A stretch of 52,321 nucleotides of DNA. It comes from Candidatus Scalinduaceae bacterium. GTDB lineage: Bacteria; Planctomycetota; Brocadiia; Brocadiales; Scalinduaceae. The stretch is taken from assembly GCA_046759445.1 (NCBI GenBank), contig JBHICG010000017.1:1-52321 (forward strand), in the 5' to 3' direction. Position 1 is the stretch's first letter. Every line of letters begins with the position of its first letter. The notes below the pieces were generated by a model. That model was not told the DNA's origin. It saw only the letters and a list, made by a program, of their open reading frames with translations, and ran no database searches. Shown here one piece after another: positions 1 to 22,516 of this stretch. The translations under genes were made by a program, and so were the position numbers.

Positions 1-124
1 GTGACCACATATCGATAAACCACTTGTAGTCATGGAAGGACTTGACCCCTTCCCTCCCCTTCCCTAAAAGTGACCACATATCGATAAACCACTTGTAGTC
101 ATGGAAGGACTTGACCCCTTCCCT
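1..124. repeat. Two identical 55-bp direct repeats (1-55, 70-124) containing GGACTTGACCCC, with a duplicated CCCCTTCCCT between them
   Basis: gtgaccacatatcgataaaccacttgtagtcatggaaggacttgaccccttccct occurs at 1 and 70; the array may continue past the left edge. Confidence 0.9.
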
Positions 125-915
125 ACAAAACCACGATTTCTAAGCTCTTGAATTAAAGAAACATGAATTGTAATACGCTGATTCTCCCACCACATATCAG
201 GTACATTTATAACGCAATGGCCTTTTGGTTTTAATAAAGGCAACAGTTTTTCATAAATGTCCCCCATTGCTTTAGTGTATTTTTCTAATGGCATGGTTCC
301 TAAATCTCTATCATCTTGAGAATATTGTTCAACCTTCATGTATTGTTCATTTTTCCTATCTCGGCGTGATTTGTTTTTTCGTTTTCTATTTAAAAGATTA
401 GCATAAGGTGGTGATGTCCATATTAAACTAACCGTGTTTTCATCAAGGTAGGATGAAATATGTAAAGCATCATCTTGAATTGCTATTTGTTTTGATTTAT
501 TAAATAAATTCTGATTGATAAGGCGTTTTTTGCATATTTCAATATATGATTCCTGTAAATCAAAACCTAGTGCGTTTCTATTTAAGTCTTGTGCCGCAAC
601 AAGGGTTGTGCCACTTCCGACAAATGGATCTAAAACCAACTCACTTTCATGTGTAAATAATTCGACAACTTTCTTAGCTAGAGAAATAGGAAATGTAGCA
701 GGATGAACTTCCTTTTTTCGTATATCTCTTTTTTCATAAAAAAATTGCCATACACCCAATTGGCTTTTAAGCCACTCTTTGGCTAGCATGCAGTTAATAT
801 GTGTTTTTTTGCATTCACATGTTCGTTCATAGCCAATTTTCAGCTTGTGTCGAAATAGATCACTATCCTCTTTGATTGTATAATTCTTCTCAACCTGTTG
901 GGTTTTTTGTCGCAC
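64..915 (-). pseudogene. N4/N6 DNA methyltransferase, C-terminus apparently truncated by the repeat
   Basis: Motifs HPATFP, VLDPFVGSGTT (SAM binding) and TSPPY (catalytic); the last ~20 aa (VGKGSSPSMTT...) are read from the repeat. Confidence 0.7.
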
Positions 916-1193
916 GATTATCCTTTCAATATTTTATAGAAATTTGTTAAATTCAAATGCCCTGTATATCAGATTTTCTAAAATTATGCCAACAAACTTA
1001 CCCGCCCAACATTACTTTTTATGTTGCTGCAATATATAGCTAAACTTATCTTTTATTAGTTTCCTACCAATCTATTTATTTTACAAAACCTTATAAAATA
1101 CATGGTAAGTTGTTAGCTTTTGCCGTATAAACGTAAATATTTAACATTATATTGAATAACTACTTTGATAAAGTCAAGCCTTTACTACTCATT

Positions 1194-3425
1194 TCATTCA
1201 TCATTTAAAAAGGGCTTAAATTTTTCATAGAGGTTCTGTAGCTTCTTTTTATAATGTTCCACATTTTCATCCGGTTTCTTTGGATTCCATTCCGAAGCGA
1301 GTTTGCAATTATCAAACACCCTTACTTTACTATTTTTTCCTGTTACATAATAAGAAATCTGGTCACCAGGCTGATAGTTGCGTTTCGATTTAATAGCCAA
1401 TTCATATGCAGCCGCAGCGCTTCTCTTTTTGCTTTTTACCTTTTCACTGTAAGTAGAAAGAGATTCCTGTAAAGTCTCTCTTTTTACAAACATCTTTTTA
1501 TCCCACTTATGATTTTCAAGCTCATCGGTATATTTTTCCAGAAGATTACGCACCTCTTTGCCTTTTCCTTTAAGTAAGAGATAAATCATTTCTTCCATAA
1601 ACTTACGTTGAAATAACTCCAGCCCCCTGGAACGCAGTCCAGAACCCTTAATAATCATCCTGTCATCGTAATCAAGGAGCACATAATTCTTAATCTTATA
1701 GCTAAACATGGCCTTATATCTTCCAGCCAATTCGAGGTTTATACCTGCGGGTAATGTATTTGATAATTCTTCAACGAGTTTTTCTTCTTCCTTTTCCTTT
1801 GTAATGTTTTCAGGTGGTACAAAGTAAATACCGTCTGTATCAATCTCGATCACCTTACAATTACTATCCTCTAACCATTCAATCATGGACTTGATAAGGG
1901 CCCTTCCCTTTGCTGTCACCTTATTCGCCTTATCAAAATCACTGAAGTGACCATAGGCAAACCCCAGATAACCATAAAATGAATTTATAAGTATTTTAAA
2001 AGTTGCCTGAAGTGCGTCAAAATACATCTTTTCCGCCTTTGTTTTTGCAATATTAACCATTTCTTTTGCCTTCAATCGGAAATCCTTCAGGTCTTCTAGC
2101 AATGAGCGAAAGATATGAAGCTCATCCTTTTTTGGAAAATATTTGAAGGTCAGCATAATGGATGGATACAACGATTGAACATCGCAATACAGAATTCTAT
2201 TAACCACGCCCTGATAAAATATGTCAGTATATCCACCGGAATATTCTTTTGCCTGAGGTGGCTGGGGAATTGAATGATTTGAGCTTATGTACTCTCTTAT
2301 GAAAAGTGAATCAATCTTTGTTGCGTTACCCCTTATTATGACATTTTGAAACGAATAAGGAAAAATCTGGGTCTGGTAAAAAAAGCCTTGACTTAATATT
2401 TCACTTATAGCCCTGGTCTCTCTGACGTCGTCCATCGCATATTTTAGAAGCTCATCCGGTTTATTATCATAATACCAGTTTATCATTTCCGGCTTTATAT
2501 ACGTCCTTCCATGAGGGGCAACATTAAAGTGCTTTGCTATAACTTTTAAACCATAGCTCTCCAGGCTCCTGGCAGTAACATCATACATCTGTGCAAGTAA
2601 ATATGTATCTACAATATGACGACCGTACGCTTCAAATTTTCTGTAAGAAATTGCACGCTCTGCAATATTTAAACGAGATGGATGAGACTTTAGGATTTGC
2701 TTATTGCGACCAATAGTTAAAGGAACTTTATGTCTTTTTGCACGTGTTTCTATGTAAGTCAGATCAAAATTAAATACATTATGTCCCTCTATAACATCAG
2801 GGTCCTTTGAATTAATTTGTTCAACCATAATTTCCAGCATTTTCTTCTCATCAAATTCTTTTCCTGAAATTATATATTCCCATCCTCTGCTATCTGAAAG
2901 AGATATCACTGTAATTCTGTCTTCCTCCCTTTGAGGGTTTGAAAACTCATATCCCTCAGCACAATACGTTTCAATGTCAAGTTGAAGCCTAACCAAATCA
3001 CCAAACGACATTTCCTTAAATAGCGTTTGCCCTGTAAGAAGAAGGTACTGATGAACCGGGTCGTTTAAATAATAAAACGGCGTACCAAAACTTGCCGGAG
3101 TAGCGCCTGTGGTTTTCTTTAAATGTTTCATCAAATGTTGCAAATCAGTCCAATTGTTCAAGAAAATCAGGTATTTATAATATTCACCCCCCTTAAGCTT
3201 TTTTGCCTCATACGTACCCTTCCAACCATTTATATATCCTGTGTCTTCCAAAAAAATAAACGGTTTGAATGTTTCTATCCTGGATGTTACTTTATTTCCT
3301 TTACGAATAAATATCTCCATACTACTGTTACCATCATACTCCACTGCCGTAATAAAGGGTGTAGAATCATGTCCAAAGAGAATTTCGTTTTTGTGAAAAT
3401 AAACCTTTTGAAACTTCATATCCAT
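1194..3425 (-). CDS. polB: Family B DNA polymerase with 3'-5' exonuclease domain
   Basis: Exo motifs LDIET, GHNVFNFDL, YAMDD; polymerase motifs DVQSLYPS, KILINSFYG, IDTDG. Confidence 0.92.
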   Translation of the reverse strand: MDMKFQKVYFHKNEILFGHDSTPFITAVEYDGNSSMEIFIRKGNKVTSRIETFKPFIFLEDTGYINGWKGTYEAKKLKGGEYYKYLIFLNNWTDLQHLMKHLKKTTGATPASFGTPFYYLNDPVHQYLLLTGQTLFKEMSFGDLVRLQLDIETYCAEGYEFSNPQREEDRITVISLSDSRGWEYIISGKEFDEKKMLEIMVEQINSKDPDVIEGHNVFNFDLTYIETRAKRHKVPLTIGRNKQILKSHPSRLNIAERAISYRKFEAYGRHIVDTYLLAQMYDVTARSLESYGLKVIAKHFNVAPHGRTYIKPEMINWYYDNKPDELLKYAMDDVRETRAISEILSQGFFYQTQIFPYSFQNVIIRGNATKIDSLFIREYISSNHSIPQPPQAKEYSGGYTDIFYQGVVNRILYCDVQSLYPSIMLTFKYFPKKDELHIFRSLLEDLKDFRLKAKEMVNIAKTKAEKMYFDALQATFKILINSFYGYLGFAYGHFSDFDKANKVTAKGRALIKSMIEWLEDSNCKVIEIDTDGIYFVPPENITKEKEEEKLVEELSNTLPAGINLELAGRYKAMFSYKIKNYVLLDYDDRMIIKGSGLRSRGLELFQRKFMEEMIYLLLKGKGKEVRNLLEKYTDELENHKWDKKMFVKRETLQESLSTYSEKVKSKKRSAAAAYELAIKSKRNYQPGDQISYYVTGKNSKVRVFDNCKLASEWNPKKPDENVEHYKKKLQNLYEKFKPFLNDE

Positions 3426-3994
3426 TTAAACCTCACACCTTTACTATTAAAGGAAAGACTCCCTATGTCATAATTGTTTACACTCAACCTGTTATCTGAT
3501 TTTTCAATATAATGTCTAAGTATACTCTCAATAACTCCGTAATGAGTCATAAACAGGGATGTTTTCCCATTATATTTACGTAAAATCCTCTCAACAAAAT
3601 CTATTACTCTTTTTCTAAATGTATCACCGCTTTCACCTTCCGGGTAGAACTTCCATGTATGGTTTTTATGAAACATTATGATCTCCTTTACATCATCGAT
3701 CTTCCTACCAGTAAGCTGACCAAAATCTAATTCTCTTATATCTGTACAATAATTGACATTAACATTAACATTCAATTCCCTTAATAATATCTCAAGGCTT
3801 TTCCTGGCCCTTCTAAGGTCACTACAAAAAACTGCATCTAAAACAATACCCTTAAGTTTCTTAGCTCTGTTCTTTGTAGCAATTATCCCTTCCCGAGTCA
3901 AAGGAGAATCATTCTGTCCCTGTATAATCCTATTGACATTATCCACAGTCTGACCATGTCTTAGAAGATATAAGGTTGTTTTATTCTCAACCAT
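3416..3994 (-). CDS. Histidine phosphatase (phosphoglycerate mutase-like) family protein
   Basis: LLRHGQT, SDLRRA, RELDFG, THYGVI; overlaps the polB start. Confidence 0.9.
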   Translation of the reverse strand: MVENKTTLYLLRHGQTVDNVNRIIQGQNDSPLTREGIIATKNRAKKLKGIVLDAVFCSDLRRARKSLEILLRELNVNVNVNYCTDIRELDFGQLTGRKIDDVKEIIMFHKNHTWKFYPEGESGDTFRKRVIDFVERILRKYNGKTSLFMTHYGVIESILRHYIEKSDNRLSVNNYDIGSLSFNSKGVRFKWI

Positions 3995-4390: not shown

Positions 4391-4533
4391 TTGTTTCAGC
4401 AACAACTAATTACTATTCTATTCTTCTTCAAATTATTTTCCAGTAGAAATAAATCTTATTTGTACTCAATGCAAAATACACTGATTTCAATTTTACTTGA
4501 TAATTTAAGGTAATTTCCTATAGAATTGACTTT

Positions 4534-5727
4534 ATGAATCTGGTACCAAAAGAATTATTCGAATATATGGTTTCTATACGCCGCCGTATACACAAACATC
4601 CAGAGCTTGCATACCAGGAAGAAAATACTGCAGCAATTATTATAGAAGAACTAAACAAACTTGGTATAGAAGCAAATACAGGAATCGGAAAGACTGGTGT
4701 AATAGGTCGCATTTGTTCATCACATAATGCGGATCCCGCAGTGGCGTTAAGAGCTGACATGGATGCATTAGCCATTAACGAGAAAACAGGTCTTGAATTT
4801 GCATCTGAAATAAATGGTGTAATGCATGCCTGTGGTCATGATGGACACATTGCAATGCTCCTGGGAGCAGCAACTTTACTAAAGGAATCAATCAAAACTG
4901 GAAGTGTATTACTCGTATTTCAGCCAGCAGAAGAAGGAGGCGGCGGAGCTCAAAAAATTATGGACTCAGGATTACTTGCCAAAGCAGATGCAATTTTTGC
5001 CTGTCATCTGGACAGACATTTTAAGGTCGGAGAGTTAGTTGTACAGCAAGGTCCTATTTCGGCATTTACAGATAGATTCGACATCAACGTAAAGGGTAAA
5101 GGTGGCCATGCGGCACAACCACACGATACAGTTGATGCCATCGTAATAGCCAGTCTAATCGTAATGACTTTGCAGACAATCGTATCCAGAGAAGTAAACC
5201 CTATCCATCCATCTATCATATCAGTTGGCAAAATAGAAGGAGGTTCGGTACCCAACGCCGTAGCAGATAGTGCCAGACTTTCAGGTACAATACGTACAAC
5301 TGAAACACACGTGCGAAAACAGATAAAAGCAGGAATTCAACGCATCGCCAATGCGGCAGGCACACTCCATAATGCAGACGTTAAGGTTGAGTTTATAGAG
5401 GGGTATCCGTCTGTAATTAATACCATTGAAGAATCAAAGATTGCCCGACAGGCAGTCATAAATGCTATCGGAGACGAGGCGCTCGTTGATACCCAATACG
5501 TAACTATGGGAGGTGAAGACTTTTCCTTTTATCTTGAAAAAATCCCAGGATGTCTTGTAAGGTTAGGAGCACAGAAGGTTGGTCTTGAAAATGTTCCCGC
5601 ACACAGCTCTACCTTCGATTTTGATGAAAATGCTCTTGGTATTGGCGCTGTTTTCCTTGCAGAAGTTGCAAAATTATCTATTGACCATCTGATAAAGAAA
5701 ACGGCTGGCTCATCTTCCACCAACTAG
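4534..5727 (+). CDS. M20 family amidohydrolase (M20D type)
   Basis: HPELAYQE, LRADMDAL, MHACGHDGH, FQPAEEG, GGHAA, GEDFS. Confidence 0.93.
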   Translation: MNLVPKELFEYMVSIRRRIHKHPELAYQEENTAAIIIEELNKLGIEANTGIGKTGVIGRICSSHNADPAVALRADMDALAINEKTGLEFASEINGVMHACGHDGHIAMLLGAATLLKESIKTGSVLLVFQPAEEGGGGAQKIMDSGLLAKADAIFACHLDRHFKVGELVVQQGPISAFTDRFDINVKGKGGHAAQPHDTVDAIVIASLIVMTLQTIVSREVNPIHPSIISVGKIEGGSVPNAVADSARLSGTIRTTETHVRKQIKAGIQRIANAAGTLHNADVKVEFIEGYPSVINTIEESKIARQAVINAIGDEALVDTQYVTMGGEDFSFYLEKIPGCLVRLGAQKVGLENVPAHSSTFDFDENALGIGAVFLAEVAKLSIDHLIKKTAGSSSTN

Positions 5728-7886
5728 GGAGTGATATCTTTGATATGAGAAAGAATTTTCAAAAACCCCTTACTTTGTGTGGCTAACTTGTCCAGTTCTC
5801 TTATATGTTCATCTCTCAATTCCAATGATAATATCTCTTCACTCAACTGACTATTATCCATATTACCTGCTCCATACAACTTATCAGCAATAGCAACCTT
5901 AGCCTCAGCAGACAGATCAGAATTGATTATGACACCTCTTAGATTGACGTCCTCTCTACTTTCATTAGCCACCGTTTTCTGAAACAACCTGTCTTCTTCA
6001 CTCAGCCTTCCGACCACTTCACCTATATCTATCGATAATACTTCGGCAGTACGCCCTGTGACTGCTAGAACGCCTCGTTTAAATCCTAGGGTATCCTCTT
6101 CACTGGCCATGTGGGAGATTGTTCCCTTCTGCTGTGTTGTTAAAGATAACATCTTATTCCGCCTAAGATAAGTAAGAGTATAATGAGTAAGTTTTCTGGA
6201 AGAATCTACAATGTGAATATCTTTGCCTAAAAAACGTCTCCAAATATCATGTACTGCTTGTTCGAATACACCGTAATGAGTGCAGCCCAGAATAAGGGTA
6301 TCAATATTTTTCTCTATTAGAGGACGTAAATTTGCCTCAAGGATGGCTATAGTTCTTTCGTTCAGCGCCTTAGAATCCATTCTGTCAAACTCTACCATAT
6401 CAACTATAGTAGCTAACAACGGTGTTACAACGCTAAATATCTTTGCTTCTGGATCCTGATTTTTTATTTCCCGTATGTAGGCACCACTCTCTATCGTAGC
6501 TTTTGTCGCGATAATTCCTATAATCCTTGTCTTTATTCCCTTCGTTTTTCCAAAGCTTAAGGCTGCCTTAACAGCAGGTTCAATGGGACCAAGAATAGGA
6601 ATGGAAAATTCCTTAACTACCGTGGCTCTAGCATTAGCATCCATTGTGTTACAAAGGAGAACGATCTTAGCGCCTAAGTTATAAGCAGCCTCTACATATA
6701 TCCTACAAAGTTGCTTAATCCTTTTAGACGAACTTCCTCCAAGCCGCTTTGATAATACGCTGATTAAGACAACATCCTCTCTATCAAGACCTTTCAGCTT
6801 TGATAAATTCTCTTGTCCAATTGCAGGTGCAACTCCTGTGTCTAGGACTACGATTTGTCCATTAGGTTTATAGTCCCTAAACGGAAGGTACATCACGGCA
6901 AGAAGTCTTTTGATGGCCAGTATATCTTTGGCAATGGATGGCACCACCCCATATTTCTCATCAATTCTTGACACTTGTTTCCTGTAATGTTTTCCAGCCT
7001 TCGATATTTTAGAGACTAGTTCCTTCATCGCAATCGCGCCTCTTTTTGTCGCTCTCCACTCCTTCAGCCACATTAGTGCAGCATCATGATAGGGAGTTGC
7101 GAGTATTATTGCTTTATCTTTATCCCTTTCTTTTGTCTTCTTTTCCTCTTCCATTTGGTCATGTACTTTATACAAAGTATCAAGTAACTCTTTATCCTTA
7201 GGTGCCAGTAGATGTTTTAAAAGTAATGTTTTCAGCGCTTCATCCTCTACCCAGTTTAGTATCTGCTCATCAGTAGTTACACCATCCGGTTCAGGCCAGA
7301 AACCATCAGGACTCATAATGCGGTATTTGGTAAGTCTGTAACCTATCTCCCTTGAGAGCCTTGCTATCTCAGTCTTTGTCATGTGAAGTTCTACTGTTTG
7401 GGTTTGTCCTCTATTTTTATTAACATCTATCAGAGCTACGGCACAGCCAGCTCCCCCTAACTTCACATTATGAAGAGCATGGTACAAACTCTTTTCCATA
7501 GCTAATATCTCCACTTCCTCAAGAACCAGCTTTTCCACAATATCCTTTACATCCTCCAAAGAAGTCTTTCCAATTCTTTTAGGAAGATAGACTTGCTTGA
7601 TAAACTTTAGGACGCCCTGTCCGGGACCAAATGCAAGATTATGCTGAACAAGGAAGAGTTTAATTGGTTTGGTATTACCATCATCCATATTCAGGTCGAT
7701 TGTGTCTATAAATCTCTGCCTTGGCTCTTCCAATTGCTCGAATAAATGATGATGTATATTGAAGAAATTTTTATCTCTCTCTTGGAGAACGAGCTTGACT
7801 TTGGCGATACGACGATGTATTTTCCTTAAGGTAGTTGGTTTCTTTCGTTTTTTGCTAATTTCATGCTTTATGTGATCTGATGACAT
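5724..7886 (-). CDS. Fusion of a degenerate Glu-dehydrogenase substrate/dimerisation domain and a glutamate racemase (MurI-like) domain
   Basis: N-terminal VQHNLAFGPGQG, LGGAGC and PEPDGVTT align to GDH motifs; C-terminal LDTG, LCNT, IGIIATKATIESGAY and LGCTHYG are racemase motifs. Confidence 0.8.
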   Translation of the reverse strand: MSSDHIKHEISKKRKKPTTLRKIHRRIAKVKLVLQERDKNFFNIHHHLFEQLEEPRQRFIDTIDLNMDDGNTKPIKLFLVQHNLAFGPGQGVLKFIKQVYLPKRIGKTSLEDVKDIVEKLVLEEVEILAMEKSLYHALHNVKLGGAGCAVALIDVNKNRGQTQTVELHMTKTEIARLSREIGYRLTKYRIMSPDGFWPEPDGVTTDEQILNWVEDEALKTLLLKHLLAPKDKELLDTLYKVHDQMEEEKKTKERDKDKAIILATPYHDAALMWLKEWRATKRGAIAMKELVSKISKAGKHYRKQVSRIDEKYGVVPSIAKDILAIKRLLAVMYLPFRDYKPNGQIVVLDTGVAPAIGQENLSKLKGLDREDVVLISVLSKRLGGSSSKRIKQLCRIYVEAAYNLGAKIVLLCNTMDANARATVVKEFSIPILGPIEPAVKAALSFGKTKGIKTRIIGIIATKATIESGAYIREIKNQDPEAKIFSVVTPLLATIVDMVEFDRMDSKALNERTIAILEANLRPLIEKNIDTLILGCTHYGVFEQAVHDIWRRFLGKDIHIVDSSRKLTHYTLTYLRRNKMLSLTTQQKGTISHMASEEDTLGFKRGVLAVTGRTAEVLSIDIGEVVGRLSEEDRLFQKTVANESREDVNLRGVIINSDLSAEAKVAIADKLYGAGNMDNSQLSEEILSLELRDEHIRELDKLATQSKGFLKILSHIKDITP

Positions 7887-8202
7887 CTCAACCTCTTACT
7901 AGATTACCACATATATAAATTATTGACCAAAGGGGGTTAATTTATAACCTTACTTGTTAATTGATACGCATGCAATAAAAATCAAAATATTCGATTACTA
8001 TCTAGAGCCCAACGCAACTTTATAAAACTATTGTGCCATATGTAAAGAATTCTTTTTGCTAAATTATATTTCACACGGTCATAATTTAAGCTTTTTTAAT
8101 AAAAGGCTGAAACCCTGGCGTGTCGCCAAGGCAGGACTATATTCCTGGGGACTTAAGGATTTTGCCTTTTATTTCATTGCTTTCCTGCAAGAACTTCATT
8201 AA

Positions 8203-8454
8203 GTAAATAGTCTAATTTTTAACAATGAGGAAAGAGCTGATACCGTTAGAAGAGTAGAATTAGAGTTTGTTGTATCAGACGATAAAGTTGAAAAGGTTAT
8301 AGAAACTATTAGGAGTGTTGCTGCAACTGATCAAGGAGGTGATGGACGAACATACATATCAACTTTGGACGTTTCAATCCTTATTCATTCAGGTGATAAA
8401 CATCTGGGGGACGACAGTGAAAAAGGTTTATTGACTGATAAATTTGACAAATAA
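8203..8454 (+). pseudogene. 5'-truncated relic of a P-II paralog (copy of the 22517-22900 type)
   Basis: Not in the ORF track; reads ERADTVRRVELEFVVSDDKVEKVIETIRSVAATDQGGDGRTYISTLDVSILIHSGDKHLGDDSE*; no ATG; in-frame stop at 8200-8202. Confidence 0.85.
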
Positions 8455-8465
8455 GATGATGGCGC

Positions 8466-11400
8466 TTAATTCATAATTGCTTTTCTTGCACGCTCTGGTA
8501 AGGCGGATATTGCCCTCAAGAGGTCATCATTCTCAGATTTGGCGTTAGCAAATGAGCTAAAAAGATTGATAGCTTCCGCATATATGTCATTTATAATTAC
8601 TCTGATATTTTCATCTGTAATCTTGCCGGTATTCAACACCTTTTCCAGATTCGATATCAAAACGACATCTGTCCAGTAATCTAGCGGTATTCGCTTCATC
8701 AAATCATTACTCAGATAAGTAAGATGATCACGCACGGTGTTGAGTAAATCGTCTGTCAAATCCCCCCTCCCCCCCTTTATTAAAGGGGGATTAGGGGGGA
8801 TTACCATCCGAACAACCTCTCTGGATAGCTCGGCAACAGCGACACGTCCTATTGCCATAATGGAAGCCGCTGTCCTCATTTCAATCTTTCGTTCCTGTGA
8901 AATCTTGATAATGTCATCAAAAATCGCGCAAATATTATCCTCAAGCATGCCATTAATTTTTTTTAAGTTCCAACGTTCGTTTCTGAGATTTTGCACCCAT
9001 TCAAGATAAGACACATAAACACCTCCCAGATTTGTGCTGATATCGGGTGTTATAAAAGCGCCTTTTCTTGTCACAATTTTATCACCATCAGGAGTGATAG
9101 GTCCATTTGCGCCTTCTACTATAATTTTGGCCTTTACGTTATACGCATTCCTGTCTATGGCATTCTCAAGCGCAGCGAGGATCAGGAAGTCAACATCCAG
9201 GGCGAAAATACCCTCGTTTGTAATATCCCTTCCCCCCTGAAATCCTTTCAATAAGCCTGTGCCTGACGTATTCACATGTTTAAATACCGCATCTATGTCC
9301 AGACCATTAGGGTTATAGATACCACCACTGGCATCCGTAATGGCTACCACCTTTACGCCTGCATCGTGTAAAAATTTTGCAGGCGGCCTGCCGACATTAC
9401 CAAATCCTTGTATGGCAGCGGTTGCGCCTTTCAGATTTATGTTTTTATATTTGGCCGCTTTTTTTAAGGCAATAAACACTCCGCGCCCGGTTGATTCAAC
9501 CCTGCCGAGAGAACCTCCTTTAACGTCTGGCTTGCCGGTAACAACGGCAAGCGCCTGGCATTTTATTTCTGTATGCTTTTTTAATATCTTTATACATTTA
9601 TCAAGATAAGGAGTATCCACAGAGGATTCAGAATGCCTGCAAATTGAACGGAAATCATCGGCGATTTCTTCGGTTAATACAGTATCATCAGTAAGCCAAT
9701 CTGATAGGTCTTCTTTTTCTATAGAAGTCTTCAGGTATTCGTCTACAAACCATGCCATCTTTGTGGCATTTGTGTTGACGTCAGGCGCAGGTATGTCAAG
9801 ATGTGGCCCACACGCATTTCTGTTCTTCAATTCTCGGCTGTATTCTCTGATTATCAATGCGTCTTTTCGATCAAGATAGTTTTTTGGGTTTACTATAATA
9901 CCACCTTTTGAACCTCCGTATGGAATTCCTGCAAGGGCGCATTTCCATGTCATCCAAATAGCAAGAGCCCTGACTTCATCAAGTGATACTTCAGGATGTT
10001 CTCTGAAACCTCCTTTGGCAGGGCCACGAGCTGAATTATGGTGTACACGATAAGCAACAAATTCATCTTCCGTAAGCCGCATGGCCTCTATCCGTTCGGG
10101 AGTAAGTAATTTTTGTTTCAGAAATAAAGGAAGCTTAAGGATGTCCGCAACCACGGCAAATTGACTTTCTGCCACTTCGAGTGGACTTGTCATGGCAACG
10201 GCATGCTCCCGTATCTTTGCATATTCCTTAAGGGTAACACTGGGTACGGAAAACAATTGGCTGACTCTCTCAAATTCACCAATTTCTTTTTTGTAGTTAA
10301 TAATATTCTTCGCTACGTTATGTTTAATGTTGAGGAATTTTTCTAATTCTTCAACATTTGCGGCATTAAGGTTTATTTTATCCTTTACGTAACCTTTTGG
10401 CTTAAAGCGTATTTTTGTAGGAAGGTCATCTAAATGGTTAAGCGCCGTCAGTTCCTCACCAGCAAGGAATTTCAAACACGTTTCTCCCATTGTAGAAAGG
10501 TACGTTCTTGGAGGAGGAGTTTTCGTGCCAAGCCTTTTTTGTGCTGCAGCAACACTATGAAGGCCAAAGATAATCTTAGATTCCGCTTCATAGGCAAATA
10601 CATGGTCTAAAATCTGATTCGTGCCCTGGCAAAACACTTCATCTTCATACTTCCCTGCAATTCCGTCTAGGATGATGGTTTTTGAATCCCGCATCTTTTT
10701 CTTTATAAGGGCAACAGTATCAGGGCCAATATCGTATGCCTTCATCTTAGCGAAACGGCCCTTAATTTTATTCACCTTAACTTTTTCGGGATTTAGTCCC
10801 GTCAGCTTTGCCATAAGGTGGTCAACGGGAAGCGTTATGTCCACACCATATCCTTTTGCCATTTCCAGTACTATTGTCGCATTACGGAGGGCCTGTGCTT
10901 GTAAATCAGGGTCTTCTTCAAGCATACAGTTATCCACGTCATATCCCTGAACCTTAAGGAATGGAAATGCAACACCGCCAATGATAATCAGTTTATCAAC
11001 TTTCTCATAAACTATAAGGTTATTCATTGCCTCAACCTTGGCTAAGACGGTGGCGCCGCCAATAATTGCAACTACAGGTTTGTAGGGATTCCTCATGAAA
11101 TTATCAAGTATACTCAGTTCCTGATTAAGCAGGAATCCGGCCACTTTCTGGCCTGAAATAAACCTTGTTATCGGCCCGAGTGATGCATGGTGGCCTATAT
11201 GGGCTGTTACTGGATCGGCATTTACATAGATATCACAGTTAGTAGTATCGTGGAGTTGTCTTGCAAACTCCATAACCTCATTATCGTCCTCTGAGGTCTC
11301 ACCGCTGCGGAACATGACATTTTCCAGCAGAAAGACACCATCACCGCTTACGATGGACTTTGTTTTTCCCCCAATGCAGTCATCAGTTATGATAACCTCC

Positions 11401-11798
11401 TTATCTTTTGAGAGAAGCTTTTTGTCCCTTAAGATCTCTGTCAGTCTTTCTGCTACTGGTCTCAGGCTGTATGTTGAGTAAATCTCTCCATCAGACAGAA
11501 CCCCCACAGAGGTCTTCTTATCCTTAAAGAAGTTCTCCCTTCCACCGTTGTGTGATATTATAACAATCGTCCTCGCTCCCTGCTTAAGAATATGGCGAAT
11601 GTCCATGACAGTCGCCCTGATACGCCTGTCGTCTATAATCTTACCATCCCTGACGATGTCGTAGTTTACCCTTAAGAAAACCCTTTTGCCTTCTAAGGCC
11701 GACTTATGAAGATTTCGTATAGGCATCTTATTGGCATAAGGGTACCACTCAAACCCCACATCAGCCTGCTTTGCAATTTTCACATCTAATATCTCCAT
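8466..11798 (-). CDS. Multidomain protein: degenerate phosphoglycerate kinase + ComEA-like HhH + glutamate dehydrogenase + C-terminal extension
   Basis: PGK-like GKRVFLRVNYD, DDRRIRA, LLEN, YDIGPDT; HhH-like KINLNAANVEEL...; GDH motifs RGPAKGG, MTWKCA, GGSKGG, DIPAPDVNT, VVTGKP, IQGFGNVG, EGANGP, SYLEWVQN. Confidence 0.9.
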   Translation of the reverse strand: MEILDVKIAKQADVGFEWYPYANKMPIRNLHKSALEGKRVFLRVNYDIVRDGKIIDDRRIRATVMDIRHILKQGARTIVIISHNGGRENFFKDKKTSVGVLSDGEIYSTYSLRPVAERLTEILRDKKLLSKDKEVIITDDCIGGKTKSIVSGDGVFLLENVMFRSGETSEDDNEVMEFARQLHDTTNCDIYVNADPVTAHIGHHASLGPITRFISGQKVAGFLLNQELSILDNFMRNPYKPVVAIIGGATVLAKVEAMNNLIVYEKVDKLIIIGGVAFPFLKVQGYDVDNCMLEEDPDLQAQALRNATIVLEMAKGYGVDITLPVDHLMAKLTGLNPEKVKVNKIKGRFAKMKAYDIGPDTVALIKKKMRDSKTIILDGIAGKYEDEVFCQGTNQILDHVFAYEAESKIIFGLHSVAAAQKRLGTKTPPPRTYLSTMGETCLKFLAGEELTALNHLDDLPTKIRFKPKGYVKDKINLNAANVEELEKFLNIKHNVAKNIINYKKEIGEFERVSQLFSVPSVTLKEYAKIREHAVAMTSPLEVAESQFAVVADILKLPLFLKQKLLTPERIEAMRLTEDEFVAYRVHHNSARGPAKGGFREHPEVSLDEVRALAIWMTWKCALAGIPYGGSKGGIIVNPKNYLDRKDALIIREYSRELKNRNACGPHLDIPAPDVNTNATKMAWFVDEYLKTSIEKEDLSDWLTDDTVLTEEIADDFRSICRHSESSVDTPYLDKCIKILKKHTEIKCQALAVVTGKPDVKGGSLGRVESTGRGVFIALKKAAKYKNINLKGATAAIQGFGNVGRPPAKFLHDAGVKVVAITDASGGIYNPNGLDIDAVFKHVNTSGTGLLKGFQGGRDITNEGIFALDVDFLILAALENAIDRNAYNVKAKIIVEGANGPITPDGDKIVTRKGAFITPDISTNLGGVYVSYLEWVQNLRNERWNLKKINGMLEDNICAIFDDIIKISQERKIEMRTAASIMAIGRVAVAELSREVVRMVIPPNPPLIKGGRGDLTDDLLNTVRDHLTYLSNDLMKRIPLDYWTDVVLISNLEKVLNTGKITDENIRVIINDIYAEAINLFSSFANAKSENDDLLRAISALPERARKAIMN
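8758..8803. repeat. Palindromic element inserted in frame in the GDH fusion
   Basis: aatcccccctcccccctttattaaagggggattagggggga; encodes IPPNPPLIKGGRGD on the minus strand. Confidence 0.8.
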
Positions 11799-14300: not shown

Positions 14301-15860
14301 ATGGGATATTTGTATAGTAGAGCTAAAAGATCATATATGGTATTTCCAATCATATTTATATTATGCCTTTTTTATTTTGGTTCAAACATAGCGTTGGCTA
14401 GTGATCCAACAGGTGAGAGTATTTTTGCCTTGGACTTTAGGGGTTTAAATGTATCCGATAGTTTTTCATGGGTTTTATTGACTGGTTTTATGATATTATT
14501 TATGCAGGTAGGTTTCATATTTTTAGGAGGGTTCCTTCAGGCAAAGAATGTGTTGAGCTATATGACACATTGTTTTCTTGCCACCACGCTTGGCGCACTC
14601 ATATACTTGTTCGTAGGTTACGCATTCATGTTTGGAGGATTCGAATTTATGGATACACACCTGGGTGGAGGCAATTCATTCATAGGGTGGAGTGGCTTTT
14701 TGTTATTGGGTGAAGCTTATGATATAAGAACGGTAATGCTGTTCCTGTTTCAGGCTGTTATAGCTACATTTATAGGCAGCATAATCGCAGGCGCTGTTGC
14801 AGAGAGGATGAAGCTTATCGCTTATGTACTTTCATTTTTCTTTATTTATACAATTATCTATCCTTTATACGGTCATTGGATATGGGGAGAAGGATGGTTG
14901 TTCAACCTTCCATTTGGTGTTGGTGCAAGGGATTTTGCAGGCTCGGGAGTAGTTCATGCAATTGGAGGCTCTATAGCTTTTACGGGAGCCTTGCTTCTAG
15001 GGCCAAGGATTGGTAAATATAGTAAAGATGGCACTCCGGGATTTATACCAGGTCATAATGTTGGTTATATGATTCTTGGGACGGTACTCCTGGCGTTTGG
15101 TTGGTTAGGCTATGATGCCGGTAGTACCTTAGCTGCAGGAGATTTTCGTGCCTCCGTAGTAGCTGCAAATACTTTTATTGCTGGAGCAATGGGGGCTGTT
15201 ACAGTACTCTATTATACTTACCTGAAAACGGGCGCTTCAGATATAGGTGAAGCATGTAATGGTTTTCTGGCTGGCCTGGTTGCCATTTCCGCATCATGCG
15301 CTTATGTCGCACCGTGGGCTGCAGTTGCAATAGGGTTTTTGGGAGGGATAGTATACGTAACTTTCGTATGGTTTGTTGAACACAAACTTAAAGTTGATGA
15401 TCCTCTTGGCGCAGTATCGGTTCACGGCGCAAATGGTCTTTGGGGCCTGCTTTCCATAGGCATCTTTGCTGATGGCACTTATGGAGGAGTTTCTGGCGTA
15501 ATAACAGGAAATTTTGGACAGTTATTTTCGCAATTTATTGCATGTATAGTAGCAGTTGCCTGGGCGGGTGGTCTAGGTTGTCTAATGTACTATGTACTTA
15601 AAATAACTATAGGTATAAGGGTATCCGAAAAGGTAGAATTAGAAGGTCTGGATGTAAACCTCCACGGTTCTCCATGTTATCGACTTCGAGCAGGGGTTGA
15701 AGCTCCCTTAGGCGCAGAAGTAGAAGGTGCAGAAGTAGAAGAAGCGGAAGAACAAAGGGAAACTGCAATACTGGAGGCAGCATTTGCCAAGGACGCAAAG
15801 AGAGAGAAGATTTACTCAGAAAAACTTGGCATATGGATAACTGCAAAGCCGAAAGAGTAA
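14301..15860 (+). CDS. amt: Ammonium transporter (Amt), non-canonical gate, ~60-aa acidic C-terminal tail
   Basis: FMQVGF, GAVAERM, DFAGSGVVH, DDPLGAVSVHG; strong RBS aaggaggg. Confidence 0.95.
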   Translation: MGYLYSRAKRSYMVFPIIFILCLFYFGSNIALASDPTGESIFALDFRGLNVSDSFSWVLLTGFMILFMQVGFIFLGGFLQAKNVLSYMTHCFLATTLGALIYLFVGYAFMFGGFEFMDTHLGGGNSFIGWSGFLLLGEAYDIRTVMLFLFQAVIATFIGSIIAGAVAERMKLIAYVLSFFFIYTIIYPLYGHWIWGEGWLFNLPFGVGARDFAGSGVVHAIGGSIAFTGALLLGPRIGKYSKDGTPGFIPGHNVGYMILGTVLLAFGWLGYDAGSTLAAGDFRASVVAANTFIAGAMGAVTVLYYTYLKTGASDIGEACNGFLAGLVAISASCAYVAPWAAVAIGFLGGIVYVTFVWFVEHKLKVDDPLGAVSVHGANGLWGLLSIGIFADGTYGGVSGVITGNFGQLFSQFIACIVAVAWAGGLGCLMYYVLKITIGIRVSEKVELEGLDVNLHGSPCYRLRAGVEAPLGAEVEGAEVEEAEEQRETAILEAAFAKDAKREKIYSEKLGIWITAKPKE

Positions 15861-15964
15861 TCAAAAAGTAACAATAAAACAAATTTTAAGATGTTACTTT
15901 TCTTTACTGTTAATGTAAATTTGAGGTTTTATTATTTTATTGTTTTTGGCTAAAGGAGGTTTTT

Positions 15965-16303
15965 ATGAAAAAGATAGAAGCTATCATACGTCCTGAGAAA
16001 TTTGATATTATTAAGGATGCACTGACAGAGAAAGGTTATGGTGGAATGTCTGTTACAGAGATAAAGGGACATGGCAATCAAAAAGGCGTAAGTGAAGTAT
16101 GGAGGGGAAAGAGGTATAAAGTAGATCTACTTCCAAAGGTAAAGCTTGAACTCATTGTTGCTGATGATGTCTGCGATGACGTAGTAAAGACTGTTATTTC
16201 AGAAGGTCAAACTGGTAGTATTGGAGATGGGAAGATATTCGTTTCAGACCTATCAAATGTTTACAGGATCCGTACCGGGGAACAAGGTGATTCAGCCATT
16301 TGA
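15965..16303 (+). CDS. glnK: P-II nitrogen regulator
   Basis: [35 protein letters not shown]; adjacent to amt. Confidence 0.95.
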
Positions 16304-16390
16304 GAATGTAAACCTCACAATGTCTGCTCATAACTTTAATGAGTGCTGAGTGTAAAACCAAAGCCGGTAGAATATACTGAAAATACTATG

Positions 16391-16436
16391 ATCAGCGGTC
16401 AAAGTTTTATATACATACAACATTTTGACCGCTGAT
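16391..16436. repeat. 13-bp inverted repeat between glnK and amt (possible RNA hairpin)
   Basis: atcagcggtcaaa ... tttgaccgctgat. Confidence 0.55.
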
Positions 16437-16524
16437 ATTCTTATGAGCTTGTGATGTAATACGATTTTCTAGGTCTGATTTTAGAGACATTTTGCAGTTT
16501 TTAAATGTTCTGATAATGAAAGTA

Positions 16525-17907
16525 ATGATGAAAAAATGTATTATTTGGATATTGTTTCCAACTGTTATAGCTTGCGTGTTGTTTGCTGCCTTCCAAGACA
16601 CCGAAGCAAGTGAACCAGGAAGTGGTTTCATAATCCACTCAGAAATCAGAGATATAGAAGGGTTAAGGATATCTATTAACATTGCCTGGACGTTGTTATG
16701 TGGTTTCCTTGTCTTTAATATGCAGGCGGGTTTTGCGTTCCTGGGCTCAGGATTCTTGCGAAAGAAAAACACCTTAAACTATCTAACGATGAGTTTTATG
16801 GATTTTTGCGTTGGCGCCCTCATATTTTGGGCTTTTGGCTTTGCGTTAATGTATGGCGGCTCATCTGTTGCCTCAGGCCTTGACAAAGGAAATGCCCTTA
16901 TAGGTCTTAGTGGTTTTTTCCTGGCAGGCAATGCTTATAATGCTTCTACATCAGCTACATGGTTATTCCACATGATGTTTGTAGTTGCTACATGTACAAT
17001 TGTGGCAGGCGCTGTTGCTGAACGCTTTAAGTTCCATGCACACTTATTATACAGTATGATACTTTGTGGCTTCTTATACCCCATTTATGGTCACTGGGTA
17101 TGGGGTGGAGGTTGGTTGTCAAATCTTCCGTTCGGTTCTGGGATGAAGGATTTCGCAGGTGGAGGAGTGGTTCATGGTATAGGTGGAATTGTTTCTTTTA
17201 TAGGGGCATGGATGGTTGGCCCAAGGTTCGGCAAGTACAATCCTGACGGCACGCCAAACATCATTCATGGCCACAATCTCTCTTATATAGTACTTGGAAC
17301 ACTCTTTCTATTATTTGGTTGGTTCGGCTTCAATGTAGGAAGCACCTTGGCTGCCACTGATTTGAGGGTTTCAATCATTGCAACTAATATGTTCCTTTCT
17401 GCAATCACGGGGGCGATAACCCTTTTATACATTTCGTACATTAAAAACAAAAGATCTGACATTGTTATGGCATGTAATGGTGCTTTAGCAGGCTGTGTGG
17501 CTATTACGGCTTCCGGCGCTTATGTGCCCCATTGGGCTGCAGTGGTTATTGGCCTAACTGCAGGTTTCATATTAATGTCTTGCTTATATATTATGGAATA
17601 CAAATTAAGGATAGATGATCCCATCGGAGCTATTTCCGTTCATGGGGCAAATGGACTATGGAGCTTACTTTCTGTTGGTATCTTTGCCGATGGCTCCTAT
17701 TTGGGGGTAAGAGGACTGATAACAGGTTCTGGATGGCAACTTTTGTCACAGTTCATTGGATGTGTTACACTCATAGTTTGGACATTTTGCGCTGGTTATC
17801 TAATATTCCTGTTACTGAAGAAAACCATTGGTTTAAGAGTCCCTATCCAAGAAGAAAACGCTGGGATTGATTTATATGAACATGGGCTTTCTTGTTACTC
17901 TGACTGA
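16525..17907 (+). CDS. amt: Ammonium transporter (Amt)
   Basis: MQAGF, GAVAERF, DFAGGGVVH, WFGFNVGS, DDPIGAISVHG; start could be 16516, 16525 or 16528. Confidence 0.93.
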   Translation: MMKKCIIWILFPTVIACVLFAAFQDTEASEPGSGFIIHSEIRDIEGLRISINIAWTLLCGFLVFNMQAGFAFLGSGFLRKKNTLNYLTMSFMDFCVGALIFWAFGFALMYGGSSVASGLDKGNALIGLSGFFLAGNAYNASTSATWLFHMMFVVATCTIVAGAVAERFKFHAHLLYSMILCGFLYPIYGHWVWGGGWLSNLPFGSGMKDFAGGGVVHGIGGIVSFIGAWMVGPRFGKYNPDGTPNIIHGHNLSYIVLGTLFLLFGWFGFNVGSTLAATDLRVSIIATNMFLSAITGAITLLYISYIKNKRSDIVMACNGALAGCVAITASGAYVPHWAAVVIGLTAGFILMSCLYIMEYKLRIDDPIGAISVHGANGLWSLLSVGIFADGSYLGVRGLITGSGWQLLSQFIGCVTLIVWTFCAGYLIFLLLKKTIGLRVPIQEENAGIDLYEHGLSCYSD

Positions 17908-17934
17908 AAAATATTCTCTTCCTTATTTCAAAGG

Positions 17935-18199
17935 AGTGTAACAACAATGGAGGTAAAAGGTAACGGGAAGCAAAAAGTTGTTGAAGAAATATGGAGGAGG
18001 ACAAAGATACAAGGTCGAGATGTTACCAAAACTAAAGTTAGACCTGGTTGTTCCAGATGATGCTGTAGATAAAATAGTAAAGACAATAATAACTGAGGCA
18101 AAGACCGGTAGCGTTGGTGATGGCAAAATATTTGTGAGTGATGTAGATACTGCGTACAGAATTCGGACGGGTGAGGAAGGTGACGCTGCCATAACATGA
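17935..18199 (+). pseudogene. glnK: P-II (glnK) pseudogene with N-terminal deletion and a frameshift
   Basis: One frame gives SVTTMEVKGNGKQKVVEEIWR; an extra base near 17997 shifts to GQRYKVEMLPK...RIRTGE; the first ~27 aa are missing. Confidence 0.85.
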
Positions 18200-18295
18200 A
18201 ATAGTTTTCAAATGGAATTGGCCCAAACGAATTCTACTGGATTTTGGCAAATATATAGATACAACAAATAAAATGTCTAAGTGGGTGGATTGAAT

Positions 18296-18338
18296 AAAAC
18301 CTGTGTCTTACTGAGAAGACACAGGTTTTTGTTTTTTT
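18296..18338 (+). terminator. Rho-independent terminator
   Basis: aaaacctgtgtctt-actgag-aagacacaggtttt followed by a T tract. Confidence 0.85.
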
Positions 18339-18424
18339 GAGGAACAGTTTTTTAATCAAGTATACATTACTTCGAAATATTAATATTGTGTGAATTTAAG
18401 ATTACATTTATAGTGTAATAATCT

Positions 18425-18613
18425 ATGTATTTTCTGATAATATGTGAAAAAAAACGATTATACTACGAAACATTTGACGACAGAAAATCATTAGAAGAAC
18501 ACATAAACAGTCGTAAAAGTTTTTTTTATAAGAAATTTAAAAACAATCAGGCGTATATCGTAAAGGGAGAAGAAATCTTTACTGCCAAAAAGCACCCGGA
18601 TGAAACGGAATAA
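18425..18613 (+). CDS. Small hypothetical protein (62 aa)
   Basis: ATG-started ORF in an otherwise empty gap, co-oriented with the kinase; no recognised motif. Confidence 0.5.
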   Translation: MYFLIICEKKRLYYETFDDRKSLEEHINSRKSFFYKKFKNNQAYIVKGEEIFTAKKHPDETE

Positions 18614-18678
18614 GCATTTCTCTAAATAAATAATGCGATATCATGTATTAATTAATTTTTTCAATGAGGTTAATAATT

Positions 18679-19488
18679 ATGTATAAGTTAGGAAAATATC
18701 AATTTGAAAGTTTTAAATACAGACCCGGTCACAGGGCAAATTATGCTGTTTTAACCAAACCCGGAAATAGAGAATGGGGAATGAAGTACTCACCTACTTA
18801 CACTTATGCCAGTGAGTATGATGTGCTGAAGAAATTTTCTCATCCACAGATTCCAAAACGATATGATTCCGGGCGGGAGGAATTATTTGAAAACGATAAA
18901 TTGGTATTGAGAGAACATTTCATCGTCTTACAACATTTTGAAGGCGAGGACATTGTAGAATATTACAAGCAGAAGGGTCTACCAGATTCTGATGAGATAG
19001 AAAATATTGTTAAATACTTTGCAAGTATCTCCGAACCTTTACAATATCTCCATTCTAAGGGATATGCTCATACTGACATTAAACCAGGTCATCTTATTGT
19101 TGACCCAGATACGGGAACAGTTGGCCTAATTGATTTGGAGCTAGCCATAAAAACAGGAGAACTTATAAAGGGTGTGACCATAGAATATGCGTCACCTGAA
19201 CAAAAGCAGATGAACAATTTATTGAAAGATGTCACAGACAGCAGGGGTGAAAAGGCCGTTTTAAAGCAGGTGAAGGTTAATGGAAGAGCTGATTTATACT
19301 CTATTGGGTTAATATTGTATGATGTATTAACGGGTAAATTACGGGCAAATACAAACAATCCTCTAATAGAAATTAATAAAGCAATTCCACAGAAATTGAA
19401 TGAAATAGTTTTGGGACTCCTTGAAGATGACCCGTCAAACAGGATATCTTCGGCAGAGGAACTTAAAGAGGAATTAGAGAACGTGTGA
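18679..19488 (+). CDS. Atypical Ser/Thr (Hanks-type) protein kinase, paralog 2
   Basis: HTDIKPGH, LIDLELA, YASPEQ, ADLYSIG; collinear with 12828-13640. Confidence 0.88.
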   Translation: MYKLGKYQFESFKYRPGHRANYAVLTKPGNREWGMKYSPTYTYASEYDVLKKFSHPQIPKRYDSGREELFENDKLVLREHFIVLQHFEGEDIVEYYKQKGLPDSDEIENIVKYFASISEPLQYLHSKGYAHTDIKPGHLIVDPDTGTVGLIDLELAIKTGELIKGVTIEYASPEQKQMNNLLKDVTDSRGEKAVLKQVKVNGRADLYSIGLILYDVLTGKLRANTNNPLIEINKAIPQKLNEIVLGLLEDDPSNRISSAEELKEELENV

Positions 19489-19545
19489 AACCAGTGATTA
19501 GGAGGAAAAGAAGATTAGAAGTTGGGAGGATAAAAGATTTGAAAG

Positions 19546-19682
19546 ATGAGGAAAAACAGTAATAATATTTTAAAACATTTCAGGGACCCTGACGTATGTC
19601 AATTAACATTTAATTGTGCAATGAAAATATTTCCTCAAGAAGAGAAATATTCACTTGTTGATCAATCCGGCGATCATCCTAA
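19546..19682 (+). pseudogene. Relic of a four-helix-bundle (23S rRNA IVS-like) gene
   Basis: MRKNSNNILKHFRDPDVCQLTFNCAMKIFPQEEKYSLVDQ then frameshifted IRRSS*; preceded by degenerate gaagatta-type repeats. Confidence 0.7.
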
Positions 19683-19703
19683 CCTCTTTAATGCGTTCCA
19701 GAC

Positions 19704-20216
19704 ATGACTCTAGATAAAATAAATGCGGTTATTAATAACATAGAAAAGCTCAAAATGATAATCAGAGACCCAGAACAATTTCTTATAAATAAATATTATA
19801 ATTTAGGGGCCCCAAATGGATTTCGTATAGAACTCCTCACCGCAAGGAAATACAATCTAATTTGTGATAAACTTAAACAGTTTCACTTTGCACATTTTGA
19901 AACGACAGATAGTTGGTTAGAAAAAGAAAAAATGATAAACATGATTCCTGTCAAAAGAATAAGGGAAGTTGTTGCAAGCCATTCATTGGCAAAAAAACCA
20001 AAAAAACTTTTTTGCCCGTACTGTGAAAAATCTGTCATTCCAAAGCGGCTTCATAAATTGGATTTAGTGGATATTGTCCTTTTTCTAATCACTGGAGGTA
20101 TATGGGCAATCTTACTTTTTACGATATATATCTTCATAAGGAGATGCCCTGTTTGCAATTATAACATGAGAGGATTTAAGCCTCTTTCTGAAAACAAAAA
20201 GATAATAGATAATTGA
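19704..20216 (+). CDS. Hypothetical membrane protein with a split Zn-ribbon (LITAF-like layout)
   Basis: CPYC, a hydrophobic hairpin, then CPVC. Confidence 0.7.
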   Translation: MTLDKINAVINNIEKLKMIIRDPEQFLINKYYNLGAPNGFRIELLTARKYNLICDKLKQFHFAHFETTDSWLEKEKMINMIPVKRIREVVASHSLAKKPKKLFCPYCEKSVIPKRLHKLDLVDIVLFLITGGIWAILLFTIYIFIRRCPVCNYNMRGFKPLSENKKIIDN

Positions 20217-20235
20217 ATGTATGGTATTCGAAAGA

Positions 20236-20295
20236 GCCACTAAGTTACTAAGACACGGAGAAGGAAATAATGACTTATCTTAGTGTCTTGGTGGC
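20236..20295. repeat. Short inverted element built from 8-nt units
   Basis: gccac-taagttac-taagacac ... cttagtgtcttggtggc. Confidence 0.55.
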
Positions 20296-20320
20296 AAGAC
20301 TGTTTGACGGATACTCAATA

Positions 20321-20364
20321 ATAAGAGGCGCTGTCTATTTTTCATAATAGACAACGCCTCTTAT
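20321..20364. terminator. Hairpin between convergent genes, likely terminator
   Basis: ataagaggcgctgtctatt / aatagacaacgcctcttat. Confidence 0.7.
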
Positions 20365-20444
20365 CTATAACCTCGCCCTCACTGTTACTAATAACTCAAA
20401 CAAGAATCAAGGATTAGAATATAACACGTTAATCAATGACTTGC

Positions 20445-21791: not shown

Positions 21792-21879
21792 TCGTTTAAC
21801 CTCCTTTTAAAGTATCGTTCTGAACATCCTACTTTTAAATACCTTGTTTTAAAAATCATGTTACCACAATACATTATTT

Positions 21880-22230
<351 letters not shown>

Positions 22231-22264
22231 CTATTTTAACAATAACAGTTTTACAAGGAAAATT

Positions 22265-22280
22265 AGCATATCGTGTGCCT
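22265..22280 (-). promoter_or_regulatory. Putative sigma54 promoter of glnK-amtB
   Basis: Minus strand AGGCACACGATATGCT, GG-N10-GC, ~47 nt upstream of the glnK ATG. Confidence 0.7.
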
Positions 22281-22516
22281 AACCACGACAAACAATTATA
22301 TTGTTGCTTAAGTATTAATATATAAGACTTTATAATTCTCTTATTTTGAAAAATAATATCTGCCAATTTTGTATGGTCGGCTCATATACACCAATGAGTT
22401 TTTTGTAATAGTCAAATATTCGCCAATTATCCCACTTAATATAAGAGGTTTTGATAGCATAATCTGACTATATTATATTCTGCGGATTGTGTAATTCATT
22501 GATTAAAAACATTACC

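Follow-up and report, generated by a model that had tools for sequence, protein, structure and literature searches.

An open reading frame (ORF) at positions 5724..7886 on the minus strand of contig JBHICG010000017.1 (assembly GCA_046759445.1, Candidatus Scalinduaceae bacterium) encodes a 720-amino-acid protein, P0001, in which a module related to glutamate dehydrogenase (GDH) is joined to a MurI-type glutamate racemase. All coordinates given here are those of the window, that is, the whole 52,321-nucleotide stretch that was analyzed. The frame is open, and a Shine-Dalgarno sequence (AAGAGG) precedes the ATG. The names carried by homologs place the organism in Candidatus Scalindua/Scalinduaceae, marine anammox members of the Planctomycetota. 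From the N terminus, P0001 consists of a GDH domain I module (residues 16 to 217; 7236..7841, minus strand), delimited by Pfam, hhalign, alignment A2, and the ratio of nonsynonymous to synonymous substitution rates (dN/dS); a GDH remnant (residues 218 to 340; 6867..7235, minus strand), in which an insertion with a TPY motif is followed by a stretch matching the C-terminal GDH part that comes after the Rossmann core (alignments A1 and A2, BLAST); the racemase domain (residues 341 to 590; 6117..6866, minus strand), recognized by Pfam, TIGR00067, a match to MurI in the PDB, and alignment; and a conserved, Scalindua-specific C-terminal region of unknown fold (residues 591 to 720; 5727..6116, minus strand). 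The codons of the two putative catalytic cysteines, Cys412 in a CNT motif and Cys535 in a GCTHY motif, were located from the sequence and alignments at 6651..6653 and 6282..6284, respectively, on the same strand.

A preliminary description of this locus had proposed that the N-terminal half is a GDH homolog, and both tests of homology bear this out. The Pfam family ELFV_dehydrog_N matched residues 62 to 215 at 33.1 bits against a cut-off of 25.3 (E = 5.1e-8), and hhalign comparison of the family alignment A1 (26 members, 19 of them from Scalindua) with a 12-member GDH alignment, A3, gave a probability of 98.8% (E = 4.9e-17) over residues 16 to 217. The alignment with the neighboring GDH, P0003, on which that description had leaned, does exist (BLAST E = 1e-4), but the module is more similar to the canonical GDH encoded on another contig (E = 5e-13). 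Three lysines characterize an active GDH: as described for the GDH of Clostridium symbiosum, the lysine of GG(S/A)KGG is catalytic and those of GPxKGG and MxWKxA bind the substrate. In alignment A2, these motifs are intact in the canonical GDH of the genome (GPSKGG, MSWKCAL, and YGGAKGG) and in P0003 (GPAKGG, MTWKCAL, and YGGSKGG); the corresponding residues of P0001 are Q90 (GPGQGV), Y135 (KSLYHAL), and G147 (LGGAGCA). All three lysines are lost, as had been described, and every motif string quoted in the earlier account is present in P0001. The Asp of the PxPD motif (D201) is retained. The NAD(P)-binding domain PF00208 gave no match in P0001 at an E value of 0.1 or lower. Residues 255 to 345 matched residues 434 to 575 of the Kuenenia fusion protein described below, which belong to its GDH part after the Rossmann core (BLAST E = 7e-5); part of the stretch from 218 to 340 is placed differently in alignment A2, so that its register is uncertain.

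The racemase half was recognized by family, structure, and motif. Asp_Glu_race (PF01177) matched residues 403 to 545 at 47.7 bits (cut-off, 31), the best NCBIfam match of P0001 was glutamate racemase TIGR00067, to which its orthologs scored 93 to 104 bits, and solved MurI structures were matched in the PDB, the best being 2dwu (E = 5.8e-19). According to a passage of PMC5885031, catalysis by canonical glutamate racemases relies on acid-base chemistry at two cysteines. When P0001 is aligned with canonical MurI, C412 and C535 fall in the catalytic Cys motifs, in agreement with the earlier statement that the racemase keeps both cysteines. Moreover, every one of the 26 family members, which are only about 25% identical between clades, has D349, C412, N413, T414, C535, T536, H537, and Y538. 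Compared to canonical MurI (TIGR00067; PDB entries 2dwu, 2jfu, and 1b73), P0001 shares the fold as predicted from sequence, the CNT and GCTH(Y) cysteines, the Asp of the first motif, and the domain length, whereas it is longer by 340 residues at the N terminus and by 130 at the C terminus, and its first motif begins with D349-T350 instead of the canonical DS.

A word-seeded search returned 114 other clusters, 58 to 75% identical to P0001 and about 720 amino acids long (some 911 to 926), and every name among them was Scalindua or Planctomycetes. Searching 1.84 billion cluster representatives with a hidden Markov model recovered only four clusters of the fused family and two fragments; the next proteins below the fused clusters were ordinary ones of MurI size (256 to 311 amino acids), at 137 bits or less. 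Within the order, the fusion gene, of about 720 codons, occurs in 24 of the 27 other Scalinduaceae genomes. Among 47 Brocadiaceae genomes, 8 (the 4 from Kuenenia and 4 others) encode a homolog of 916 to 948 amino acids, 25 to 32% identical, and the fusion was found in 0 of 17 genomes of three other families. As far as the searched collections show, the family is restricted to anammox bacteria.

The Brocadiaceae form helps to explain how the Scalindua protein may have come about. It is exemplified by the 916-amino-acid P0118 of Candidatus Kuenenia stuttgartiensis, whose public names are "Strongly similar to glutamate dehydrogenase" and "aspartate/glutamate racemase family protein." Like the Scalindua form, it has the same module order and keeps the racemase Cys pair, and its catalytic lysine is lost too, being replaced by Met or Ile (GGGMCG/GGGICG). 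Unlike the Scalindua form, it comprises a complete GDH, with domain I, PF00208 (127 bits), a GxGxxG motif, and the two substrate lysines in GPPKGG and TTLKLAL, followed by the racemase; its DSGxGG motif is canonical, its D....PFG loop is near-canonical, about 37 residues are inserted before CNT, and its tail is not detectably similar, with no significant pairwise similarity between the Scalindua and Kuenenia C-terminal tails (E = 13). Trees built by a quick search grouped the two forms together, with an SH-aLRT support of 99 for their pseudo-GDH parts (29 rows, 7 of them drawn from the 19 Scalindua rows in A1) and of 92 for their racemase parts (36 rows, 6 of them from Scalindua). These sequence comparisons indicate that the P0001 family arose by one fusion of a GDH paralog with a MurI-type glutamate racemase. 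In the simplest history, a racemase would have been joined to the C terminus of a GDH paralog in a single event, the catalytic lysine would then have been lost, and, in Scalinduaceae, the Rossmann core would have been deleted internally and the other lysines lost. With the catalytic lysine missing in every family member, the GDH half cannot work as a dehydrogenase; in the Scalindua form, the substrate lysines and the NAD(P) domain are gone as well. The preliminary description had the racemase replacing the NAD(P)-binding domain. This view has to be revised, given that in Brocadiaceae the racemase follows a complete GDH and that Scalindua appears to have deleted only the Rossmann core.

The dead module is nonetheless not decaying. 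Pairs drawn from the 19 Scalindua members are on average 66% identical in the pseudo-GDH and 65% identical in the racemase, and between the Scalindua and Brocadiaceae clades the pseudo-GDH is the best conserved part (32%, versus 25% for the racemase). Across eight genome pairs, dN/dS values (NG86) ranged from 0.08 to 0.32 for the pseudo-GDH and from 0.11 to 0.21 for the racemase. Purifying selection acts on the dead GDH module as strongly as on the racemase. The gene is a clear natural example of a domain that stays under strong selection although its chemistry and half of its fold are lost. As a separate observation, the search of representatives also brought up P0195, a 4468-amino-acid protein that combines HEAT repeats and an alanine dehydrogenase/PNT module with a GDH-like module scoring 117.5 bits against the pseudo-GDH profile.

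MurD is encoded in this genome (432.9 bits), which therefore needs D-glutamate (D-Glu). The fused ORF is the sole TIGR00067 match here and in 23 of the 24 other Scalinduaceae genomes with a match. Whether the genome holds a separate canonical murI had been raised as a question in the preliminary description; none was found, which argues for a plain enzymatic role of the racemase half rather than the role of a glutamate sensor suggested there. The only other PF01177 protein of the genome, a 257-amino-acid protein on contig C6, was considered as a canonical MurI and rejected, as it is of the Asp-racemase/CuyB type (TIGR00035, 159.7 bits). The two class IV aminotransferases of the genome score as IlvE and PabC, not as Dat, and Dat was detected in 0 of the 92 genomes of the order. 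The exception among the Scalinduaceae is genome G080, in which a standalone MurI lies together with FolC and an amidase on the 3003-bp contig C175 (locus L044). Its named relatives are Fidelibacterota/Marinimicrobia at 57 to 69% identity; we rejected it as a genuine Scalindua MurI, and the contig is probably a binning contaminant.

Kuenenia presents a parallel case. In four of four genomes, the standalone Kuenenia protein that public records call glutamate racemase carries Ser in place of both cysteines (ASNTPS and SSTHLP). Cys-to-Ser changes would be expected to cripple MurI, although we found no relevant paper on such mutants. Besides the fusion and this Ser/Ser protein, the four Kuenenia genomes gave no MurI or PF01177 match, so that the fusion holds the only intact Cys pair there. 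Peptidoglycan of K. stuttgartiensis contains L-Ala-D-Glu-mDAP-D-Ala (mDAP, meso-diaminopimelate), according to a passage of PMC4432595. By alignment, the Ser/Ser MurI-like paralog is present in exactly the eight Brocadiaceae genomes that carry the fusion (L045:461-1261 in G049, L046, L050, L051, and L065 to L068) and in no other genome of the order; it is absent from Scalindua. This paralog may serve the fusion as a pseudo-racemase partner. The existence of this paralog, together with a pseudo-GDH half showing that the lineage keeps dead enzyme folds, lends some color to the idea that the whole of P0001 is a noncatalytic, glutamate-sensing or regulatory pseudoenzyme whose racemase fold serves to bind a ligand. 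We regard this as very improbable, because invariance of the Cys pair and of the flanking N-T and T-H residues across clades about 25% identical is hard to explain without chemistry, and because where the lineage did give up the cysteines, in the Ser/Ser paralog, both positions changed.

On the evidence of motifs and genome content, the explanation that we favor, to which we give about an even chance, is that P0001 works as a glutamate racemase, with the pseudo-GDH as its scaffold or regulator. It would make the D-Glu that MurD uses in Scalindua and, probably, that used in Kuenenia too. The retained parts of the module, the N-terminal 200 or so residues and a C-terminal helix, are what we take to be GDH domain I, and domain I forms the core of the GDH hexamer; for this reason, we propose that the module acts as an oligomerization scaffold or as an allosteric device controlling the racemase.

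Several findings weigh against this explanation. The TIGR00067 score of P0001, 101.1 bits, is under the curated equivalog cut-off of 146.65. In 7 of 7 Scalindua members aligned, DTG(V/I)AP replaces the canonical DSGxGG (a change of S to T and of GG to AP), and SVLSK-RLGG replaces the canonical GD....PYG loop. With two substrate-side motifs altered, the substrate, or any activity of the domain, is not assured. Family members also differ at the Glu of the GxxEP motif. Three Scalinduaceae genomes that are 89 to 96% complete do not have the gene, even when searched with a profile. Seventeen genomes of families f2, f3, and f5 (G001 to G016 and G091) have MurD and no MurI or Dat match, apart from a weak 33-bit TIGR00067 match with an internal stop in G001, so some other source of D-Glu exists in the order. 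DapF is such a candidate for these three families, and it is also encoded in the genome studied here (313.4 bits). Chlamydial DapF racemizes glutamate, and its authors propose the same for the Planctomycetes-Verrucomicrobia-Chlamydiae (PVC) group, as passages of PMC5885031 state. In favor of the explanation, contigs of a metatranscriptome study (two runs) cover 5773 to 7547 at 95% identity or higher, with zero to seven differing letters per listed contig, but they denote presence in RNA libraries and are not proof of transcription. Lastly, the oligomeric state of P0001 and any regulatory ligand are purely our inference.

Moonlighting by DapF is the main rival to the fusion as the source of D-Glu. 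The DapF of Chlamydia trachomatis solves the same problem, the making of D-Glu in PVC bacteria without a canonical MurI, with a different fold and a different gene (passages of PMC5885031). Applied to Scalindua, this would mean that the racemase half is active while DapF or another enzyme feeds MurD, the fusion acting on another substrate or making D-Glu for some other purpose tied to nitrogen or glutamate metabolism. The altered substrate-side motifs and sub-cut-off score, the MurD-positive relatives without any MurI, and the presence of DapF with its chlamydial precedent all speak for this alternative. So does the coexistence of the fusion with a canonical Cys/Cys MurI in four Brocadiaceae genomes, by which it would ancestrally not have been the sole racemase, as does the genomic setting: the fusion ortholog of one Scalinduaceae genus, g2, directly adjoins an ammonium transporter (Amt)-PII-Amt cluster, and four Amt genes and a PII gene lie 6 to 17 kb away in the window. 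On the other side, every top match, whether to a family or to a structure, is to a glutamate racemase, the catalytic residues do not vary across the family, and Kuenenia and the Scalinduaceae have no other Cys/Cys MurI. We consider this alternative unlikely.

The neighboring gene enters the argument because the preliminary description had P0001 as a second subunit of the GDH encoded there. This upstream gene on the same strand (8466..11798) encodes P0003, an 1110-amino-acid protein in which Pfam and genome comparison recognize a phosphoglycerate kinase (PGK)-like domain, a ComEA-type helix-hairpin-helix (HhH) module, and a GDH with its three lysines intact; a canonical PGK and a canonical 412-amino-acid GDH are encoded on other contigs. 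P0003 is kept at 76 to 84% identity in 22 of the 27 other Scalinduaceae genomes and in G091 of family f5, which has no fusion. At none of 14 loci (flanks of about 6 to 10 kb each) does a P0003 ortholog lie beside a fusion ortholog; in genome G066, 2.5 Mb of a single contig separates the two genes, and in the two genomes that share a genus with the present one they are on different contigs. The adjacency is peculiar to this genome, and the place of the fusion beside the PGK-HhH-GDH gene probably reflects a recent local rearrangement and not a conserved functional pairing. Co-occurrence is likewise loose: among the 27 other Scalinduaceae genomes, both genes are present in 19, the fusion alone in 5 (77 to 94% complete), and the PGK-GDH alone in 3, while the fusion occurs without PGK-GDH in 8 of 8 Brocadiaceae genomes. 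With neither adjacency nor co-occurrence conserved, the proposal of a subunit of the neighboring GDH finds no support in comparative genomics.

A broader version of that proposal, in which the dead module co-assembles with a hexamer of a true GDH, be it the PGK-HhH-GDH or the canonical enzyme, to tether the racemase where L-Glu is made, for channeling, or to play a regulatory part like that of Thermus GdhA, strikes us as quite improbable. The retained parts, the N-terminal 200 or so residues and the stretch matching the part after the Rossmann core, would suit it; in GDH, domain I makes the hexamer contacts. An insertion with the TPY motif is common to P0003-type GDH and the fused forms and is absent from canonical GDH, which hints at kinship between the pseudo-GDH and P0003-type GDH, but the tree does not place the two together, the node in question being unresolved, and the pseudo-GDH is more similar to canonical GDH than to its neighbor, as noted above. 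RNA library contigs also cover the intergenic region between the two genes (7796 to 8656). In Thermus, gdhA and gdhB are adjacent genes, an arrangement unlike that of P0001, whose adjacency to a GDH gene is not conserved. A precedent is at hand in Thermus thermophilus GdhA/GdhB, described in passages of PMC9570180 as a heterohexamer with an inactive subunit; here, as there, an inactive GDH paralog is under selection beside an active GDH, and the earlier remark that inactive regulatory GDH subunits exist in Thermus is correct. GdhA, however, is a full-length, standalone, two-domain subunit of the GDH fold, whereas P0001 has lost domain II and has its module covalently fused to another enzyme.

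A more elaborate model can be built upon a racemase with a pseudo-GDH scaffold, although we think it distinctly unlikely to be correct as a whole. A GDH-like hexamer of the racemase, alone or mixed with GDH, would gate the D-Glu destined for the wall according to the glutamate/2-oxoglutarate (nitrogen) status of the cell, and in Brocadiaceae the Ser/Ser pseudo-racemase would be a further regulatory partner. If this were true, then, together with the PGK-GDH fusion next door, Scalindua would control its glutamate node through fused pseudoenzyme modules.

Our literature search (anammox racemase, GDH-racemase fusion, and Scalindua peptidoglycan) found no publication discussing a GDH-racemase fusion, and the family is uncharacterized, bearing only automatic labels. 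In Kuenenia, two of these labels may mislead. A supplementary table of PMC7438415 lists a gene as gdh_1 at 31 to 39 reads per kilobase per million mapped reads (RPKM) and, as murI, KSMBR1_1293 at an RPKM of 18/36. The fusion sequence P0118 carries in public records the same product phrase as gdh_1; the identification of gdh_1 with the fusion is putative and rests on this phrase. The gene labeled gdh_1, counted as ammonium assimilating, would then encode a protein that cannot be a dehydrogenase, and the one labeled murI a protein with neither catalytic cysteine, which affects how GDH copy numbers are read in studies of anammox nitrogen assimilation.

Gene order around the fusion differs among Scalinduaceae. 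In the window, four Amt genes (14301-15860, 16492-17907, 20445-21791, and 23690-25078) form a cluster at 14301-25078 with a PII gene (15965-16303) and two Ser/Thr kinase-like genes; between the fusion and this cluster, the PGK-GDH gene, a metallophosphoesterase gene, and a kinase gene appear to intervene. In most other Scalinduaceae (L052 to L062, L025, L057, and L058; genera g3 and g4 and other members of g1), genes for LexA and a Y-family polymerase follow the fusion, and a gene for an unknown 290-amino-acid protein lies divergently upstream, often with one for a KamA-family radical S-adenosylmethionine aminomutase (TIGR00238, 283 bits). We rejected a functional tie of these two upstream genes to the fusion: the present genome carries the 290-amino-acid gene on another contig, C19, and a search of it did not turn up the aminomutase. 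Scans of the window with Rfam and for tRNAs returned nothing, and a promoter and terminator scan of 5500 to 8700 gave nothing useful above shuffled expectation. On the minus strand at 64-3994, just beyond an M20 amidohydrolase gene, lie genes for a family B DNA polymerase (743 amino acids), a DNA methylase fragment, and a histidine phosphatase, which may be the remnant of a mobile element near the rearranged locus. The RNA runs left 4400 to 5161, in the M20 gene, almost bare of contigs, an observation to which we attach no weight.

The C-terminal region of P0001 (residues 591 to 720) had no match in Pfam or among PDB sequences, and a structure look-up of residues 585 to 720 in the Atlas returned only matches with a template modeling (TM) score below 0.4. 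The orthologs of genus g2 (P0104, P0105, P0077, P0103, and P0120) carry an additional C-terminal domain of about 200 amino acids (residues about 712 to 911), for which weak structural look-alikes with transglutaminase-core or papain-like folds (TM score, 0.40 to 0.47) provide a lead only.

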